Notes under the pieces: generated by a model
Told to the model about the DNA's origin: nothing
The model's input: only the letters and a program-made list of their open reading frames with translations
Database searches by the model: none
Position numbers and translations under genes: made by a program
Shown here: positions 23,776 through 32,777 of the stretch, piece by piece
Layout: each line of letters begins with the position of its first letter
Numbering within the stretch: the stretch's first letter is position 1
NCBI GenBank assembly: GCA_965246715.1
Contig: CBDFFH010000002.1
Span: 1 to 64,000 of the forward strand
DNA: 64,000 bases
DNA from: Chamaesiphon sp.
GTDB lineage: Bacteria > Cyanobacteriota > Cyanobacteriia > Cyanobacteriales > Chamaesiphonaceae
Reading direction: 5' to 3'

Positions 23776-23922
23776 ATGAAGTATTTCCCTTCGATCGTAT
23801 TGCTAGCGGCGACGATCTCGATCGTTACTTTTGCTAGTCAAGCATCTGCTGCCATCTTATCATTCACCACCAACCTCTTAGGCCCGAATGAGTCACCCGT
23901 AAATGCCTCAACCGGAACGGGG
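23776..23922 (+). pseudogene. 5' fragment of a secreted CHRD-domain-like gene, cut by the group II intron
   Basis: RBS GAGGA; MKYFPSIVLLAATISIVTFASQASA (signal peptide) + AILSFTTNLLGPNESPVNASTGTG resembles a CHRD start. No continuation in the window. Confidence 0.6.
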
Positions 23923-24775
23923 GTGCGATTCGTTTCTAACTGAATCACGGTAATCAGTCCGTACATAAGTTAGACAGCGCAAGGCTCCTAGCCCCAAGCT
24001 GAACTTCTCGATGTATGAAGGTGCAAGTCCTTCTCATTAAACTCAAGAGTGAATCCTTACCTGCCCACACCGACACGACTCGGAATTCGTGAGAGTGAAG
24101 CTGGGAACAGGGCGGAATCAGGTGCGGCTCGTTTCTTTGAAACATAACACTAGTTATGGGGATAAGATTCCTTACACCGCCTTAGTTTCAATTGAAACTT
24201 TAAAGAAAGTAAGGAAAACTTCAGTTTAGTGTAGGTGAGCCGAAAATACGAAGTAAGCAAGTCCTACCCTCTAGGGATGGAGTGATGCCAGACCTACCCA
24301 CATGGACAGAGAATAAAACTCTGAAAATGAAGCTGGGAATAGGACGGGAATAACGAAGCCATAAAGTCAAATGACAGGCTGATACCCGTTAGGTAAGCGT
24401 GTAACGGTTAAGTTAAGTCTGAACCTTCTAAAAAAGCATCCAAGGCCCCCTAATCGAAAGATTAGATAATCACACAAAATAATCCGATAAGGATGAATAT
24501 ACCCACAGAGTTTCTGGTTAACATCTGTAATCCTGGGAAATGGTGGGTGAATTGAAGGAACCTAAAACCGCAAAATAACTAAACTGAGGAACGAATAAAA
24601 CAGTTTCCAATACCTTCTTCTGAGAATCTAGGATATGCCCCTAGAAGAAGTGAAGCCCTTAAATAAGGTTTAGCGGGGGAAATTGGTAAGATGCGCTCGA
24701 AAATCTGAAAGGTAAGGACTTGAAGACAACTGGGCGCGGTTTACATAGACAGATTCTCAATGCGTAAATCATGTT

Positions 24776-25970
24776 ATGACGACGGAATTAAAACCGAGCG
24801 ATAAATGGAAAATAATCCCTTGGCGAAAGCTGAGAAAGATTGTCTTCATGTCACGATGTTCAAAAAGGGATATTCGACAACCTTGGAAAAAAAGGTATTG
24901 AGAAAAGAATCCTGGAACTGGACATCGAACGGTGTTTCAACGCTATCGACCACAAATTCATTATGCGAAGCGTTCAACTACCAAGAGCAGCAAAAACCGG
25001 ACTCTTCAGAGCTATCAAAGCCGGAGTTAGAGGAGAGTTCCCTATCTCAGAGTCAGGAACACCTCAAGGCGGGACTATCAGCCCCTTACTTGCCAATATC
25101 AGCCTACATGGTCTTGAAGATCTTGGACACCAAGTCAGATGTAAAAGTATCAGGGGTGGAAGAGGTATCGACGCAATAAACGGATTCCGTTATGCAGATG
25201 ACGTAGTGTTTATTCTCAAGCCCCAAGACGATGCTATAGCCTTGCGAGAAGTAATTGACCGATTCTTAGGAATAAGAGGGTTAAAAGTAAAAGAAGCAAA
25301 AACCAAATTAGTACAAAGTACAGAAAGTTTCGACTTCCTTGGATGGACATTTGCTGTCAGAACCAATGACAAATTTATTTCTACACCCAGTCGTAAATCT
25401 GCAAAGAAAGTAAAGGCAAAAGTCAAAGAGATGATGAAAGATAGTCGATTCAATCTTGAGGAAAGAATCGATAAATGCGGTTCTATTATTCGAGGATGGA
25501 GAAATTACCACAAATACTGCGACATGAGTAGTCATGACTTATGGTCATTAAGATTATGGGTATGGAAATTCATACGCAAGCAAGGCAGATACAATCGTCA
25601 CCAAACCAACAAGGTTATTGAACGAGCATTTCCCAAAATTTCATGGAAAGTAAATAGTCATATCAAAGTAAAAGGGGATAAATCACCTTTTGATGGAGAC
25701 ATGATTTACTGGTCAAAACGGGAAAACTCTAACTATAACGGGATGACTGTAAATCTTCTGAGCAAACAAAAACACAATTGTACTTCCTGTGGATTAAAGT
25801 TCTATCCTGGGGACATTGTAGAAATTCATCATAAAGACGGAAACCATATCAATTGGAAGCTGTCCAATCTTGAAGTTTTACATCGAGAATGTCACCAACA
25901 CCAAGCCATACACGGTGAAGTGGGAGTCAGAAAGGCAAGCAGCCCATTAAAGGGTGGTAAGGCTTGTTAA
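24776..25970 (+). pseudogene. Outer intron-encoded RT/maturase/HNH with a frameshifting internal deletion of RT0-RT2
   Basis: MTTELKPSDKWKIIPWRKLRKIVF jumps out of frame to SCHDVQK...LDIERCF...GTPQGGTISPLLAN...RYADD...HNH (EIHH.DGN...HRECH). Confidence 0.8.
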
Positions 25971-26005
25971 GTAAATGTGAACCAGGAGCGTAGTGAAGGG
26001 AAACT

Positions 26006-28437
26006 GTGCGCCGTGGTACGCACTGATTGAATTGCCAACTCAGTTGGCTGGAGTTCAGGGTAACTGACTCCAAGGCGAACAACTTACCTAAACCCGAAAG
26101 GGCAAGGGGACAAGAGCATGTTCGTAAAGCGGAGAATAACAGAAAACGTGTATGTTATGGCTCTGCAACGCCTGAACGATATGGTTAAAGCTAAACTGCC
26201 TGAACCCCAATATCCAGAGGTGGAACTGCACATCCTTCGGTATCACGTTTGTACACCGATGTCACTGGTAGCCATTAATTCAACTTTCGTTAATGGTACA
26301 CCCTGACCAGTGAGCAATAAGTAATGAACTTATTCAAGGATATGAGTAGGAACCTAAGTCGTTCTTTATACGTTCATCAGTGACGGAACATGGGATTGCC
26401 TAAGGGACGCGAGTCCTATGGTGACGGAGTTCTAATAGTAGTCGTGGGAGTAACGCCCCACCAGGGCAAACGGGAGAGCCGTTTACATGGCGAAGTAGAA
26501 CAGGTAATAAAGATGAAACAGAAATCGAGAGGTACGCGAGATGCGAACAGCCGAAACGATACTGAACATCATACGTGAACGCGGACAACGTGGGTTGCCA
26601 GTAGAAGATTTGTATCGACTGCTATATCACCCAGATTTGTACTTACGCGCCTACGCCAAGCTGAACAGCAACACAGGTGCAATGACACCCGGTGCTACAA
26701 AGGAAACGGTAGATGGAATGTCCCTGGAGAAAATTAATACCATCATTGAGGCTCTGAGATCTGAGCGTTATAGATGGACACCAGCGCGACGTACCTATAT
26801 CCCGAAGAAAAACGGTAAATTACGACCCCTTGGTATGCCCTCTTGGTCTGATAAATTACTTCAAGAAGTAATTCGTTCGATACTAGAAGCTTACTATGAA
26901 CCGCAATTTAGCGAACATTCTCACGGTTTCCGACCAAAGCGTGGATGTCACACAGCCTTGAAAGAAAATTACCCAAAAAGGTCGAGCTACAAAAGTGGTT
27001 TATCGAAGGAGATATTAGTGCGTGTTTTGACAGAATAGACCATACTATTCTGGTGGAAATACTACAAGATAAAATCCACGACAATCGCTTTATCCGACTA
27101 ATTAAGGGTTTGCTTGATGCAGGCTACTTGGAAAACTGGAAATACAACTCCACATATAGCGGAGTTCCGCAGGGTGCAGTGGTAAGCCCAATACTTTCCA
27201 ATTTGGTACTAGACAAACTGGACAAATACGTCGAATGCGAACTAATACCAGCATACACACGAGGTCTTAGAAGGATTGTTTACCCTCCGTACAGAGACTT
27301 AACTAAGGCTGCATCAATTGCCCGAAAAGCTGGAAAACTGGAAGCAGCACGGAAGCTGAACCAACAGGCACAGTCAATTCCGTCCCGTGACCCCAATGAC
27401 CCAAACTTTCGTCGCCTTTGGTACACAAGGTATGCCGATGATTTCTTGTTAGGAGTAGTTGGTTCAAAATCTGAAGCTGTGGAAATCAAACAGAAAATCG
27501 CCACGTTTTTTACGTGATGAGTTAAAACTGGAACTCAGTGATGAAAAGACCCTCATCAGCCATGCAAGGGATGAGGCTGCTAAATTCCTGGGGTACGAAA
27601 TTCACATCCTACATGCCGATGATAAACATGACCATCGTGGTCAAAGATGTATCAACGGTAGCGTGGGGCTAAGGGTGCCCAAAAGCGTTATTAAAGACCA
27701 TTGTCTTAAATACATGCGCTCTGGAAAACCAATACACCTGACACAAAGGGTCAACGATGATGCCTACAGCATAGTTAGCCAATATCAAGCGGAGTATCGA
27801 GGAGTAGTCCAATACTACCGTATGGCTTATAACCTCCACACGCTATCCTTACTTAAACGAGTTACAGAGCTTTCCCTCGTAAAAACTTTGGCAAAGAAGT
27901 TTAAAACCACTTGCCAGAAAATTTACAAGCGATATCGTGCAACCATTGATACAAAGGATGGCACTTATCGGGTGCTACAAGTAACAGTGGAACGTGATGG
28001 AAAATTACCTCTGAAAACTTATTTTGGTGGAGTTTCTTTGCAGTGGAACAAGTGGGTCGAAATTGATGATAATCAGGCAAATCATATCTGGAACGGACGT
28101 AGTGAAGTCGTTCAACGCCTTTTAGCCCAAGAATGTGAAATTTGTGGAGCAACGGACAATATTGAAGTCCATCATATTCGCAAATTAGCAGATATTAAGC
28201 AACAAGGATGCAAAGAACGTCCAGAATGGATGAAGAAAATGTCGGCACGTAGACGTAAAACTTTAGTAGTTTGCCGTCAATGCCACGAGAAAATTCAATA
28301 TGGTCGCTACGATGGTGAAGCCTTCAAACGTAAAAATTACCGGAAAGCTACGTGATACGGAAACGGTCATGCGTAGTTTGGAGGGGGGTGGTTGGAAAAA
28401 GTACCAGTAATGGTAACTCGCTGGCTACCTACCCTAC
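26006..28437 (+). mobile_element. Inner group II intron (ML/IIA-like) inserted in domain V of the outer intron
   Basis: 5' GTGCGCCG; DV 28345-28379; DVI with bulged A at 28431, 7 nt from the CCCTAC end; LtrA-like ORF. Confidence 0.9.
26541..28355 (+). pseudogene. LtrA-like RT/maturase/HNH with three +1 homopolymer frameshifts (possibly sequencing errors)
   Basis: AY..L.SN.GA.TPG, YIPKKNGKLRPLG, SHGFRPKRGCHTAL, EGDI..CFD, GVPQG, RYADD, CEICG...EVHH...CRQCH. Confidence 0.85.
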
Positions 28438-28494
28438 CGCACGCCCAGTTCTAACTGAGAGGGGCGGGGCTTAATAGCCTCCCTCGACTCAACC

Positions 28495-28884
28495 CTAGGT
28501 AAGGGACGGGTGCAGGCGCAGGCGATTCAGGAAGTGGCAGCTCTGCCAGCTCAACATCCGCAGCGGGATAATGTTTTGGATTTGTTGGGGAATTTGAAGG
28601 TAATTTTGGAAGCTAGAGTAACTATCGAACCGGAGGAGCAGGAATTAATTATGCAGTTATCACCTTTGTATTTGGAAAAAATTCAGGCGGCTGAGTTGGT
28701 TGGTGAAGAACGCGGGGAGACTAGAATGGTGCTGCGATTAGTGAATCGTCGTTTTGGTGGGGTGCCGACTCAACTTTCAACCCGAATCGCGCAGTTAAAT
28801 GTATCGCAGTTGGAAGATTTGGGTGAGGCGTTACTTGACTTTACAAATTTAGAGGATCTAGAGACATGGTTGAGTCAAAATTAA
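28495..28884 (+). pseudogene. 3' fragment of a DUF4351/Rpn-like (PD-(D/E)XK-associated) gene
   Basis: Begins LGKGRVQAQAIQEV right after the intron; ends RL..RRFG...QLEDLGEALLDF..LEDL..WL. Confidence 0.75.
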
Positions 28885-29500
28885 CGATCGAATGCCATCA
28901 ATAGCGATCGATTCAAGTAAAGACGATCGAATCATGTAATAGATGCGAGCGATCGAGCCAATAAATAGCGATCGCATTTACCGAAATCGATCGATCGTAA
29001 AATGAATTCAAACCCTTGCTCTGTCTAGATTTGAAGTGGTGGGCAATGCCCACCCTACTGGGACGACCTGAATCAAAATTGACGATCGATATTATCGATC
29101 GAGGATCGCTTTGCGATCGATTATTAATGTTCGGTCGCAGAATTAACGATCGAATCTCATCAGCCACGATCGATTCAAGTAAAGACGATCGAGTTAATTC
29201 ATCAAGTGCGAGAGAATAAGCCAAAGTTGTTGCTCCGCACAAGCTTGTCTGTGGGCATCTGCCCACCCTACAGCTGATGGCTACTTTATATCAGCAGATT
29301 TACTGAAAGCAAATTGACTAGTCGTTAGGGAGCATAGACTTAGAGGGTGCTGTGGTCGCTAGCATAGATTTGGTTGACGATTTTCCCGACGTTCGATCGT
29401 TTCGATCGGTCCGCGTTCGTCGATCGGGATTAGGATGGGATATAATTACGAATATGTCTCTGACAACATACTATCTAAAGACCCGATCGATCTAGCAACA

Positions 29501-29863
29501 ATGACATGGATAGTTCAGTTTGAGGAAGATTTTGAACGAGAGTTTGACAGTTTGCCGCCGGAAGTTCAAGATATCCTGTTAGCGAAAGCGGCATTTTTAG
29601 AGGAGTTTGGGCCAGACTTGGGACGACCTCATGTGGATATTCTGCAAGGGTCTGAGTATGCCAATATGAAAGAACTCAGGTTCAATGCGATGGATGGTGT
29701 CTGGAGAGTTGCCTTTGCTTTCGACCCGCTCCGTCGTGCAATGCTCTTAGTTGCAGCTGATAAGTCAGGTGTTAGTCAAAAACGATTTTACCAGCAGTTA
29801 ATTAAGAAGGCAGATCGTAGATTTACAGATCATCTCAATCGTTTACAAGAAGAGAAAAACTAA
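29501..29863 (+). CDS. Type II toxin, RelE/ParE superfamily (HigB/Gp49-like)
   Basis: GP.LGRPHVD.L.GS..NMKELR...WRVAFAFDP.R; TATAAT at 29441 and an imperfect TATGT...ACATA palindrome upstream. Confidence 0.85.
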   Translation: MTWIVQFEEDFEREFDSLPPEVQDILLAKAAFLEEFGPDLGRPHVDILQGSEYANMKELRFNAMDGVWRVAFAFDPLRRAMLLVAADKSGVSQKRFYQQLIKKADRRFTDHLNRLQEEKN

Positions 29864-30207
29864 TGGGAACTACACTTCGCGCTAAACTTCAGAGTTTACC
29901 CCCAGAAAGACAAGCTAAAATCCAGGCGATGGCTGACGATCTAATTGCTGAGGAGATGACTTTACGCGCTCTGCGCCAAGCTAGACAATTGACTCAGGTA
30001 CAGGTAGCTCAACGGCTAAATATCGGTCAGGATGCGGTTTCTCGGATGGAAAAACGCACGGATTTACATCTATCTACTTTGATGGAAGCAATTCGAGCGA
30101 TGGGTGGTGAGTTGCAGTTAGTAGTGAAGTTTCCAGATCGACCTTCTGTAAGATTATCTGGTTTTCAAGATTTAGGTGAAAGCTCTTTGGACTCGGTAAT
30201 TGAATAA
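29863..30207 (+). CDS. XRE-HTH antitoxin (HigA-like)
   Basis: LRQARQLTQ...VSRMEKRTD..LSTL...GGEL; start overlaps the toxin stop. Confidence 0.85.
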   Translation: MGTTLRAKLQSLPPERQAKIQAMADDLIAEEMTLRALRQARQLTQVQVAQRLNIGQDAVSRMEKRTDLHLSTLMEAIRAMGGELQLVVKFPDRPSVRLSGFQDLGESSLDSVIE

Positions 30208-30428: not shown

Positions 30429-32777
30429 CTAGTTGTCTGTAACGTTAACGGTTTGAGTGGTGATGCCGCCGCGATTGTCTAGAACTTCGAGTTTGACTGG
30501 ATAGTTGCCGTTATCGAGGAAGGTGTGGTCGATCGATCGTACTTGAATTGGTGTGGTTGCGCCGTTAATATACCAGCGGTAGGTGAGGGGGTCGTTACCG
30601 ATGTCGGTGGCGGTGGCGGTGAGGGTGGTGATGGTTCCTTCGGTGATATTGTTGGGAATGGTAATGGTTTGGATGGTGGGTGGAAGGTTATTAATCGTCA
30701 GGTTTACGGTGGCGAGATTGGAAACTTGTCCGTCGGAGCCGAAGCCGAGGTAGGTGAAGCTATCGATGCCTACATAGGTGGGATCTGGGGTATACGTGTA
30801 GGTAAAGTCCCCTCCTGGGAGGGGTAGGGGTGGGTTCAGGGTGATGGTACCGTGCTGGGGTTGGTTGATGACTTGGATCTGGGTGATGTTGGTGTCGTTG
30901 GTAGTGAGTTGGGTGGTGGTGAAGGTGAGGGGGGTGTTTTGGTTGGTGGCTAGGGTGTCGTTTTTGGTGATGGGGATATTTTGGGTGTCGGTGAAGAGTT
31001 TTACGTCGTCGATGGTGACGGTGCTGGTTTTGGCACCGAATCCTAAGAGGTTGAAGTAGAGGGTGGCTTGGGTGGTTGGGGCGACTTGGGCGAGATCGAT
31101 CGTAACGATGCTACTGTTGTTACCTAGAGCGGTAATGGTGACTTTATCGCTCTTATGAATGGTGCCGTTGGCTTGGATATTTAGGAGAGAGTCGGTATGG
31201 TTTAAGCCGACACTGGTTCCGGCGAGGGGGTTGAAGGTGTTGGTGTCGAGGAGGGCGACTTCAAAAGCATCGTTGGCGGCTTTGGTGGTGTCGCCTGGGA
31301 CGAGATGGTTATCCTTGATGGTAAACTGAAGCGTCTTCGCGCCTGTGGGGATGATGAAGGCTTGGGTGAGTTCGGAGAGCTTTTGGGACTGCTCGGTGAG
31401 GGTGGCGGTGCCGTTGATGATATTGGTGGCACCTAGAGTGTTCCAGGTGGTGGGGGTGGTGAAGTCGCCGTTGGTGATACCGATGAGGGCACCAGCAGTC
31501 AGATGTGCGGTGTTAACATTACCGACACCCGACACCCCACCCCCGACACCCAAATTCAGAGCATTAATAATCGCCCAATCCATAACCGATGGTAGTTTGC
31601 GAACGCCAGGTTTGAGGCTGGTGTTCATCAGGTCGTAGGGGTAGAGGGTGCTGTCGAGGTGGGAGCCGTCGGGGGTGAGTTTGGTGGTGAGGGTGTCGGT
31701 GATGAATTTGTTGCCTTTGACGTATTTGTTGAATTCGCTGTAGCCGTTGATGATGCCGAGGGTGTGTCCCATCTCGTGGAGGATGGTGGTGAGGAGGTCG
31801 TATTTAGCGGAGGCTGGGCTGTTGGGGGTGGCTTGGAAATAGGAGTCTGTTCCGGTGAATTCGCTATTATCCTGTGGGGTGGTGTCGAGGAACCAGCCGA
31901 CTCCGTTGGCATCGTCGTCGATGGTGATGGTGGCGGTTTTGAGGGTGCCGTTGGTGTTGTAGCTGGTGATTGTGCTTTCAGCTAGTTGTCCGGTGGGGAG
32001 ATCTTGGATCTTAAAGGCAAGATCGATTGGGGTGGTTGTATGCCAGAGGGTTTGGGCGGTATTGTAGATGCTAGTAACTAATGGAGCGTTTTCAGAATGA
32101 AGAAGGTCATGACTGTTGATGAGTTGTTGGCTCGCTATGCTGCTGGGGAGAGAGATTTCAGTGAAATTAGATTGGTCGGTATCATTGGCAATCGAACCTT
32201 TAATGGCTTTAGCTTGAAAGATGTTAACTTGAGTGGGGCTAACTTTAGCAAGGGGTACTTTTTGGATGGTCAACTGGAGCGAGTTAACTTGAGTGGGGCT
32301 AATTTGAGTGGAGCTAGAGTGACAGATATCATGATCGAGGATGTCGATCTGAGTGGGGCTAATTTGAGTGAGGCTGTCTTGCAAGGTGCTAGTGCTAGAA
32401 GCACTTCCATGGAAGGAGCTAACTTCGAGAATGCCATCTTGGCTGAGTCGGGAATGGATGATTCCTGTCTCAACAATGCTAATTTCAGCGGTGCCGAACT
32501 CTGTGAAGCATTCTTCACAAGATGTACTTTTACAGGTGCTACTGTCAATATCAACGAACTTCGCGGTTGTTATCTGACTGAAACCCTTTTGCCCGATGGA
32601 GAGATTGTTACCAACGGCATCCAAGATTGAGTTGGCTGCAAAATTTTCATCTGCTAATAGTGATGCGCTACTAGGTAATAGTCCATCACTTCTCGATTCA
32701 ATTGCTTCTTCTATAAAATCTGGCAACTCTGATAAGAAATCATAGTTAGTTAGAGTCTCAAGGTAATTAATACTCAC
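30429..32777 (-). CDS. Large extracellular-type protein: HExxH metallopeptidase-like domain plus cadherin/Ig-like and PKD-like domains; N-terminal part overlaps an antisense gene
   Basis: DDDANGVGWF, YDLLTTILHEMGHTLG, DLMN; PQHGT...YTYTPD..YVGIDSFTY; GNDPLTYRW...DNGNY.V.L.V.D. Confidence 0.75.
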   Translation of the reverse strand: MSINYLETLTNYDFLSELPDFIEEAIESRSDGLLPSSASLLADENFAANSILDAVGNNLSIGQKGFSQITTAKFVDIDSSTCKSTSCEECFTEFGTAEISIVETGIIHSRLSQDGILEVSSFHGSASSTSTLQDSLTQISPTQIDILDHDICHSSSTQISPTQVNSLQLTIQKVPLAKVSPTQVNIFQAKAIKGSIANDTDQSNFTEISLPSSIASQQLINSHDLLHSENAPLVTSIYNTAQTLWHTTTPIDLAFKIQDLPTGQLAESTITSYNTNGTLKTATITIDDDANGVGWFLDTTPQDNSEFTGTDSYFQATPNSPASAKYDLLTTILHEMGHTLGIINGYSEFNKYVKGNKFITDTLTTKLTPDGSHLDSTLYPYDLMNTSLKPGVRKLPSVMDWAIINALNLGVGGGVSGVGNVNTAHLTAGALIGITNGDFTTPTTWNTLGATNIINGTATLTEQSQKLSELTQAFIIPTGAKTLQFTIKDNHLVPGDTTKAANDAFEVALLDTNTFNPLAGTSVGLNHTDSLLNIQANGTIHKSDKVTITALGNNSSIVTIDLAQVAPTTQATLYFNLLGFGAKTSTVTIDDVKLFTDTQNIPITKNDTLATNQNTPLTFTTTQLTTNDTNITQIQVINQPQHGTITLNPPLPLPGGDFTYTYTPDPTYVGIDSFTYLGFGSDGQVSNLATVNLTINNLPPTIQTITIPNNITEGTITTLTATATDIGNDPLTYRWYINGATTPIQVRSIDHTFLDNGNYPVKLEVLDNRGGITTQTVNVTDN
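32097..32630 (+). CDS. Pentapeptide repeat protein nested antisense in the 30429-32777 ORF
   Basis: Typical cyanobacterial N-terminus MTVDELLARYAAGERDFS, A(N/D)LSG repeats, C-terminal LPDG; GGAG 10 nt upstream. Confidence 0.85.
   Translation: MKKVMTVDELLARYAAGERDFSEIRLVGIIGNRTFNGFSLKDVNLSGANFSKGYFLDGQLERVNLSGANLSGARVTDIMIEDVDLSGANLSEAVLQGASARSTSMEGANFENAILAESGMDDSCLNNANFSGAELCEAFFTRCTFTGATVNINELRGCYLTETLLPDGEIVTNGIQD

Follow-up and report, generated by a model that had tools for sequence, protein, structure and literature searches.

We analyzed a stretch of 64,000 nucleotides (nt), hereafter the window, which forms positions 1 to 64000 of contig C2 in a 6.1-Mb Chamaesiphon genome (G000) assembled into 55 contigs, with contigs shorter than 6.5 kb absent. 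Its genes and the closest intron relatives mark the genome as cyanobacterium-like. Between positions 23776 and 28884, the window holds a nest of three group II introns, which we call X, A, and B from the outside inward, with B lodged in domain V (DV) of its host. The same nest occurs at a second locus, on contig C34, and the flanking exons of the two nests are reciprocally exchanged in the assembly. The history that we favor, with modest confidence as a whole, is that a three-layer nest at two loci had its flanks exchanged when homologous recombination inverted ~326 kb and that the hybrid DV it carries goes back to an event before that, a deletion between two B copies. Below, G011, G020, and G023 denote other genomes of the same genus, and L-numbers denote loci related to intron B.

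Architecture of the nest

On the plus strand, the nest runs from the N-terminal part of a CHRD gene through 199 nt of the 5' end of X, the 5' part of intron A as far as the middle of its DV, intron B, and the 3' half of an X-type DV with domain VI (DVI), to the C-terminal part of a DUF4351 gene. A reading made from the sequence alone had described a twintron of two layers with exons from different genes. It placed B correctly inside the DV of a host intron and overlooked the start of a third intron, GTGCG at 24122, which makes the layers three. Its claim about the exons was borne out. The 5' exon (23776..23922) comprises the first 49 codons of a gene for a CHRD/PEP-CTERM-type secreted protein, of which an intron-less version exists in G011, and the 3' exon (28495..28884) comprises the C-terminal 129 codons of a gene containing DUF4351 (PF14261). 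The 49 codons of the 5' exon include a signal-peptide-like start and gave no Pfam match when searched alone; the CHRD match (PF07452) comes from the partner exon, which lies on the minus strand of C34 from 17420.

The outermost intron is represented at its 5' end by part of domain I (23923..24121), recognized by homology to X-type introns on contigs C9 and C43. That homology breaks off at 24121, and homology to the A-type intron on C32 opens exactly at the GTGCG of 24122. Contigs from public sequencing runs in which X is present but A absent diverge past 24121, and one public-run contig spans the border between X and A and shows 0 differences from the window along 1,079 nt. Intron A (24122..26005) is inserted in domain I of X, and its predicted exon-binding site 1 (EBS1; 24514-24519) is complementary at 6/6 positions to the X sequence preceding 24122. 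It ends in the 5' half of its own DV (25986..26005), made up of lower stem, upper stem, and the GAAA loop plus 2 nt, which is the target of B. Compared with its relative on C32, the open reading frame (ORF) for the reverse transcriptase (RT)/maturase of A, with its stop at 25970, lacks ~400 nt of its N-terminal part. At 24763-24850, the ORF start region is fused in frame to RT sequence ~400 nt downstream, and the deletion is identical in both copies of the nest.

On the far side of B stand the 3' half of DV and the DVI of an X-type intron whose 5' end is on C34 (28438..28494). We placed the 3' splice site at 28494, where X-type contigs diverge in 4/4 runs. Judged by exon frame and DV restoration, two X-type introns (this one and that of L005) seem to end in ..AACC rather than in the usual AY.

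Intron B (26006..28437) is a IIA-like intron encoding an LtrA-related RT/maturase/HNH protein. It carries the hallmarks of mobile group II introns, namely a GUGYG 5' end, DV and DVI (with a match to Rfam RF00029 at its 3' end), and an AY 3' end. A single ORF, as seen in the copy on C20, holds RVT_1, Intron_maturas2, and an AI2M-like HNH domain, and the best match among solved structures, by a wide margin, is LtrA (5g2x_C, E value of 5e-115). The genome contains five full copies of B, every one in the DV of another intron. The ORF is intact in four of these and frameshifted in the window copy, which has four private 1-nt homopolymer insertions (26965, 26991, 27506, and 28396) that are absent from the other four. 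The presence of four identical intact copies in different host introns suggests that B may have moved recently. The predicted EBS1 of B (26283..26288), which lies in a hairpin loop, is complementary to the GAAA loop of DV plus 2 nt. At the sites occupied by B, EBS1 is paired at 5 to 6 of 6 positions and the predicted EBS2 (26226..26230) at 3 to 5 of 5.

Exchange of the flanking exons in the assembly

The reciprocal junction, a search for which the sequence-only reading had proposed, lies on C34. There, the minus strand carries the same nest, flanked by the CHRD 3' exon and by 13 nt of the DUF4351 5' exon. The shared 4.4-kb repeat, which is the stretch of the flank exchange (24038..28443 in the window), is identical at the two loci, except that C34 contains a 1,511-nt insertion sequence (IS) accompanied by a 10-nt target duplication and that the window contains the four 1-nt insertions. 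Joined together, the 5' exon of the window and the 3' exon of C34 form a single open CHRD reading frame, with a tail that we take to be PEP-CTERM-like. Likewise, the 5' flank on C34 codes for WLRI, which runs on into the LGKGRVQ of the window, as it does in paralogs and in an intron-less public-run contig. The remainder of the DUF4351 5' exon is gone. A tblastn search with the first 169 amino acids (aa) of a paralog returned four complete paralogs, one distant match, and three short fragments, none of them tied to the locus.

Synteny with G011 (~96% identical) led to the same result. That genome has an intact CHRD gene without an intron, in which the matches to the two exons abut at 4020159/4020160. 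At 4.47-4.49 Mb, G011 has the left flank of C34, then the DUF4351 tail, and then the right flank of the window. Because G011 places the partner flanks together, the exons flanking the two nests are reciprocally exchanged in the assembly. A deletion, which had been put forward as a way of fusing the loci, does not describe this pattern; the exon swap is a reciprocal exchange through the 4.4-kb repeat.

A hybrid domain V

When B is removed from the window, the 9-bp lower stem of DV pairs at 6/9 positions and the upper stem has two mismatches, as read from the sequence. This agrees with the three lower-stem and two upper-stem mismatches claimed before. The same DV 5' half pairs at 9/9 positions with ..TTCACGCTACG.. 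beyond the B copies on C39 and C43, which is the partner that had been predicted for it, and at 8/9 on C20. Both breakpoints in the hybrid DV fall at the usual site of B, 2 nt past the tetraloop. The split DV was not detected by Rfam even at an E value of 0.1, and a loose DV regular expression run over the genome returned mostly chance matches.

The nest on C34 shows an identical mismatch of A-type and X-type DV halves. Across the five copies of B, the DV 5' halves are A-type in four cases and of another type in one, and the 3' halves are X-type in two, A-type in two, and of another type in one. No X-type DV 5' half precedes B in any of the five copies, and no re-pairing of the flanks cures the mismatch. 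The sequence-only reading had proposed that B entered the DVs of different hosts, that the flanks come from two loci, and that recombination ran through copies of B; the first two points are supported, and the third is the likely cause. It had also treated the DV and exon mismatches as one event, and that part fell: a single crossover between B copies is rejected as the source of both by the same DV mismatch on C34 and by the lack of a B copy with an X-type DV 5' half. Since both nests carry it, the DV mismatch does not come from the exon swap. It is likely a separate and older event, probably a deletion between two copies of B within one nest that was later copied to the other locus.

A trace of such copying may be preserved in X. 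Between C2 and C34, the last 84 nt of the X fragment are identical (84/84), whereas the preceding part matches at 83/125 positions (66%); other X-type pairs match at 61 to 75 of the same 84 positions. Because the identical tract adjoins one of 66% identity, gene conversion of a cassette would account for the pattern. We also considered a mobile chimeric unit in which the A 5' part, B, and the X 3' part moved together, and rejected it on the grounds that C2 and C34 have different X 3' ends and that the A protein is deleted.

These observations can be arranged into a history of five steps. First, X-type introns would have entered the CHRD and DUF4351 genes, at sites that are seen in the sequence and in an order that we infer. 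Second, homing would have brought A into domain I of X and B into the DV loops of both A and X, as the insertion sites and the pairing between EBS and intron-binding sites indicate. Third, recombination between the two direct copies of B may have deleted A's 3' end together with X's middle, so that the DV 5' half of A came to face the DV 3' half of X. Fourth, gene conversion would have placed a copy of the cassette of X end, A, and B at the second locus. Fifth, a crossover within the 4.4-kb repeat would have exchanged the flanks in cells, in the way that the assembly shows them exchanged.

Inversion or assembly switch

In G011, sequences corresponding to the far end of C2 (4040495) and the start of C34 (4039134) are neighbors, from which the adjacency C2(+) then C34(+) was derived. 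On this path the nests are inverted with respect to each other and ~326 kb apart; therefore, the swap would amount to an inversion, which a cell could survive. We consider a real inversion, fixed or flipping, to be moderately probable. The assembly appears to be long-read, with every B copy and every IS copy lying mid-contig, and a 5.4-kb repeat as well. Only 2 of the 110 contig ends fall in repeats (at least 700 nt, 98.5% identity), and both come from the 12-kb self-overlap of one contig; the end of C32 lies inside an intron nest and below that filter. The genome also differs from G011 by several further rearrangements, and C2 itself switches orientation relative to G011 within an IS-rich stretch at 213-269 kb.

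Several points weigh against our favored history. Among 24 public runs there was no long-read set of this strain, the five examined consist of short contigs, and no read spans either nest. Four 1-nt homopolymer insertions fall within 1.4 kb of the window copy of B, against a background of 43 in 459 kb in which the window's four are included and counted more than once, and the one at 28396 is missing in 4/4 runs. The pattern points to thin support for the consensus within the window copy of the repeat. In the gene order of G011, the two loci are direct and 449 kb apart, and so the inversion hinges on the C2 rearrangement at 213-269 kb being real. A second nest, on C32 and C43, has flanks that do not match either, with the C32 left flank and the C43 right flank lying 854 nt apart in G011; this fits frequent recombination and frequent misjoining alike. 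Finally, neither the genome nor the stretches of G011 that were examined contained an uncollapsed precursor of the deletion, in which two copies of B would flank the A 3' end and the X middle.

Misassembly across the repeat, the alternative that the sequence-only reading had named, is therefore still live. The nests and the hybrid DV would then be real and the exon swap an assembly switch within an identical stretch of 3.3 kb (or 1.1 kb), with the CHRD N-terminal part still facing its C-terminal part in the cell. We judge this doubtful, but it is the most serious of the alternatives. A reciprocal swap between inverted repeats is, as general knowledge, a classic case that assemblers leave unresolved. 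The four private homopolymer insertions in this repeat copy fit a switch, as do the termination of C32 within a similar nest and gaps between neighboring contigs that lie in unique DNA, which suggest low coverage. However, the assembly placed 15 near-full IS copies mid-contig, with no homopolymer errors in them, and did the same with a longer repeat of 5.4 kb. Moreover, real rearrangements relative to G011 are common, and both genes were already inactive, so that no selection would have opposed an inversion.

Origin of the hybrid and fate of the nest product

The deletion between copies of B, which we favor as the source of the hybrid DV, has competitors of its own. The hybrid may have preceded B, arising from a deletion at microhomology shared by the GAAA loops of the A and X DVs, with a single B homing in later. 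This would require just one insertion of B, and GAAA is common to both DV loops. We nevertheless regard it as improbable: on either side the join lies exactly at the usual site of B, a direct repeat of 2.4 kb recombines far more readily than 4 to 6 nt, and X-type DVs are targeted by the B family in other cyanobacteria (L090-L093). Still more improbable is a loss of the A and X middle in the assembler, by collapse of tandem B copies, such that the hybrid DV would be absent from cells. Tandem 2.4-kb repeats can collapse, and contigs shorter than 6.5 kb are absent here, but an identical error would be needed at both loci, in a long-read assembly in which all five copies of B are kept apart.

The nest product is likely dead, with neither the CHRD nor the DUF4351 gene being spliced. 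In a functional twintron, the outer exons belong to one gene and removal of the inner intron restores the outer one; here, the exons come from two genes, and removal of B leaves a hybrid DV and an X with domain I cut at 199 nt. Read-through translation of the nest stops after 55 codons, and a product spliced from the start of A stops at codon 55 too. In the nest we found no exon-binding site that fits the CHRD exon. The expected loss of function rests on these features together: the portion of domain I that should recognize the CHRD exon is missing from X, the A protein is deleted, the hybrid DV has five mismatches, and read-through meets a stop. It is barely credible that the composite works as a chimeric intron splicing 23923-28494, since, although both X introns share a phase and exact excision would give an open 178-aa fusion of signal peptide and DUF4351, the predicted EBS1 of A matches X before 24122 and not the end of the CHRD exon, X is down to 199 nt of domain I, and the DV is mismatched.

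Intron B and its relatives

Matches to B occur in 4 of 27 genomes of the genus. Nine B 3' ends were seen in the genus (five in this genome, two in G011, and a single one in each of G020 and G023), and every one leads into a DV 3' half; each of the seven B 5' ends comes after the DV loop plus 2 nt. To place B more widely, we collected 158 related loci, 79 genomic and 79 metagenomic, each set being the best of more than 550 matches. Of these, 156 were long enough for a tree with B, built with FastTree and carrying SH-like support only. B falls inside a clade of 35 rows with an SH-like support of 99, whose hosts belong to Cyanobacteriota, Deinococcota, Bacteroidota, Planctomycetota, Chloroflexota, and Acidobacteriota, some of these phyla being ones to which we assume the host genus belongs. 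Automatic classification of the flanks erred in both directions, and the clade counts were therefore read by eye. Among the 34 other members, a flank is readable in all but three; of these 31, 26 lie in a DV (two of them being copies in one genome) and five do not or are unclear. The 122 rows outside the clade, many without a readable flank, include none with a DV-loop site on both flanks. Three of them match the 3' pattern only, and the 5' flank of L148 is DV-like.

The EBS1 of the B clade covaries with the GNRA loop of DV. In 25 sequences, with positions fixed by alignment, EBS1 is paired at 133 of 150 positions, compared with a shuffled mean of 112 and 0/5000 shuffles as high, and EBS2 at 99 of 125, compared with a shuffled mean of 80 and again 0/5000; because the sequences are related, these shuffle counts are not true probabilities. 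Within the same set, GAGA-loop targets are paired with TCTC in four of five cases, and GAAA loops with TTTC or TTTT.

Hybrid DVs are uncommon in the sample of 20 relatives for which both flanks were available. Seventeen have a DV lower stem with at least 8/9 pairs, one lies outside a DV, the boundary of another was mis-called, and the last (L177) has mismatched halves, as does the nest in the window. This limits a broader idea, which we put forward tentatively: that a cross-phylum clade specialised on the universal GNRA loop of DV provides, through identical copies at one and the same catalytic position of unrelated introns, a crossover cassette that joins ribozyme fronts to another DV 3' half and DVI, rearranges chromosomes, and offers a general route to chimeric introns, the present nest being one instance. 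The mismatched case, on a metagenome contig (L177:138 and ~2590), is a B-clade intron in a seemingly ORF-less intron of its own family, and may be an independent hybrid DV.

Other observations concern the family at large. Distant relatives of B at L117, L200, L156, L166, L221, and L230 sit at the 3' strand of DV instead of in its loop, and their three separate positions in the tree suggest that DV targeting arose repeatedly. B-like contigs at high depth in the public runs X1 and X2 lack 26557-28339; these samples hold an ORF-less derivative of a B relative.

Other nests and neighboring genes

DV has been struck by at least three intron families at differing offsets in this genome. On C43 (34301-43584; L002:3301-12584), a four-layer nest consists of an X-type intron, an A-type intron just past its DV 3' strand, a third intron separating the DV of this A-type intron from its DVI, and, within the DV of the third, B. 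The EBS1 loop of this A-type intron is complementary to its insertion site after the DV 3' strand, and the right flank of the nest is the one that pairs in G011 with the left flank of C32. At L005 (C9:155697-158839, minus strand), an X-type intron with an IS in its domain I is inserted in the DV upper stem of a degenerate intron, 3 nt from the B site. At L003:6583 (C39:118582), a truncated A-type intron lies at the end of the DV 3' strand, 14 nt past B.

Downstream of the nest in the window, a Gp49-like gene overlaps a helix-turn-helix (HTH) gene by 1 base (29435-30207). The pair, which is not collinear with G011, is a probable toxin-antitoxin system. Beyond it, on the minus strand, an ORF of 782 aa with Ig/PKD domains ends in an abrupt stop (30429-32777). 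A remnant on the same strand adjoins the C34 nest; it gave no Pfam match, and we presume its motif to be FG-GAP-like. The two may be pieces of one large surface-protein gene. Elsewhere, contig C18 (32-35 kb) has a 12.2-kb terminal direct overlap that marks it as an untrimmed circular element.

Comparison with known systems

Rearrangement through intron copies and nested arrays are already known in kind; what is new here is a DV-homing inner intron and the hybrid DV left behind. In Thermosynechococcus elongatus, the exons of a pseudogene are split between the intron copies TeI4f and TeI4g, which has been read as homologous recombination (PMC2882425). The resemblance extends to TeI3 in TeI4, where identical inner introns lie in diverged outer ones, but TeI3 is an ORF-less inner intron at the start of the domain IV ORF, whereas B encodes a protein and lies in DV, within three layers and a hybrid DV (PMC2882425). 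The nested arrays of Methanosarcina acetivorans, as summarized in PMC4424553, likewise arose by repeated homing of introns into introns and were trimmed by homologous recombination into multilayer nests. Judging by the title of a paper on them, these introns target intron ORFs, and they lack coding exons (PMC4424553); the targets here are DV and domain I, and protein genes are interrupted.

A group II intron within the DV of another is known from psbF of Euglena chloroplasts, as summarized in PMC8393795. This is a single organellar case, in contrast to a protein-encoding bacterial clade that spans six phyla and has a covarying EBS1 (PMC8393795). Ll.LtrB (group IIA, ML class) encodes LtrA, the closest solved protein to that of B, and near-identical introns of its kind shuffle exons at the DNA level (PMC7947834). 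It targets relaxase genes and its chimeras can function, whereas B targets the DV of a ribozyme and the chimera is likely dead (PMC7947834). The twintron of Trichodesmium erythraeum lies in a cyanobacterial protein gene, with a host intron that starts with GUGCGAUUC like X and an inner intron in domain I like A; unlike the present nest, which is deleted, hybrid, and flanked by mismatched exons, it is intact and spliced sequentially (PMC4649490). A full-text literature search, which covered few subscription papers, found no bacterial clade specialised on DV, and databases or supplements may list DV sites.

The local nest is thus likely a dead pile-up, and its interest for specialists lies in the target of the inner intron. 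DV is the one element common to all group II introns, and an intron that reads its tetraloop would find a homing site in any intron-bearing genome. The host intron of such a DV-homing parasite would in turn depend on prior removal of the parasite. Homing into DV would also put identical 2.4-kb repeats at equivalent catalytic positions of different introns, which would provide a testable mechanism for the swapping of domains between intron lineages.

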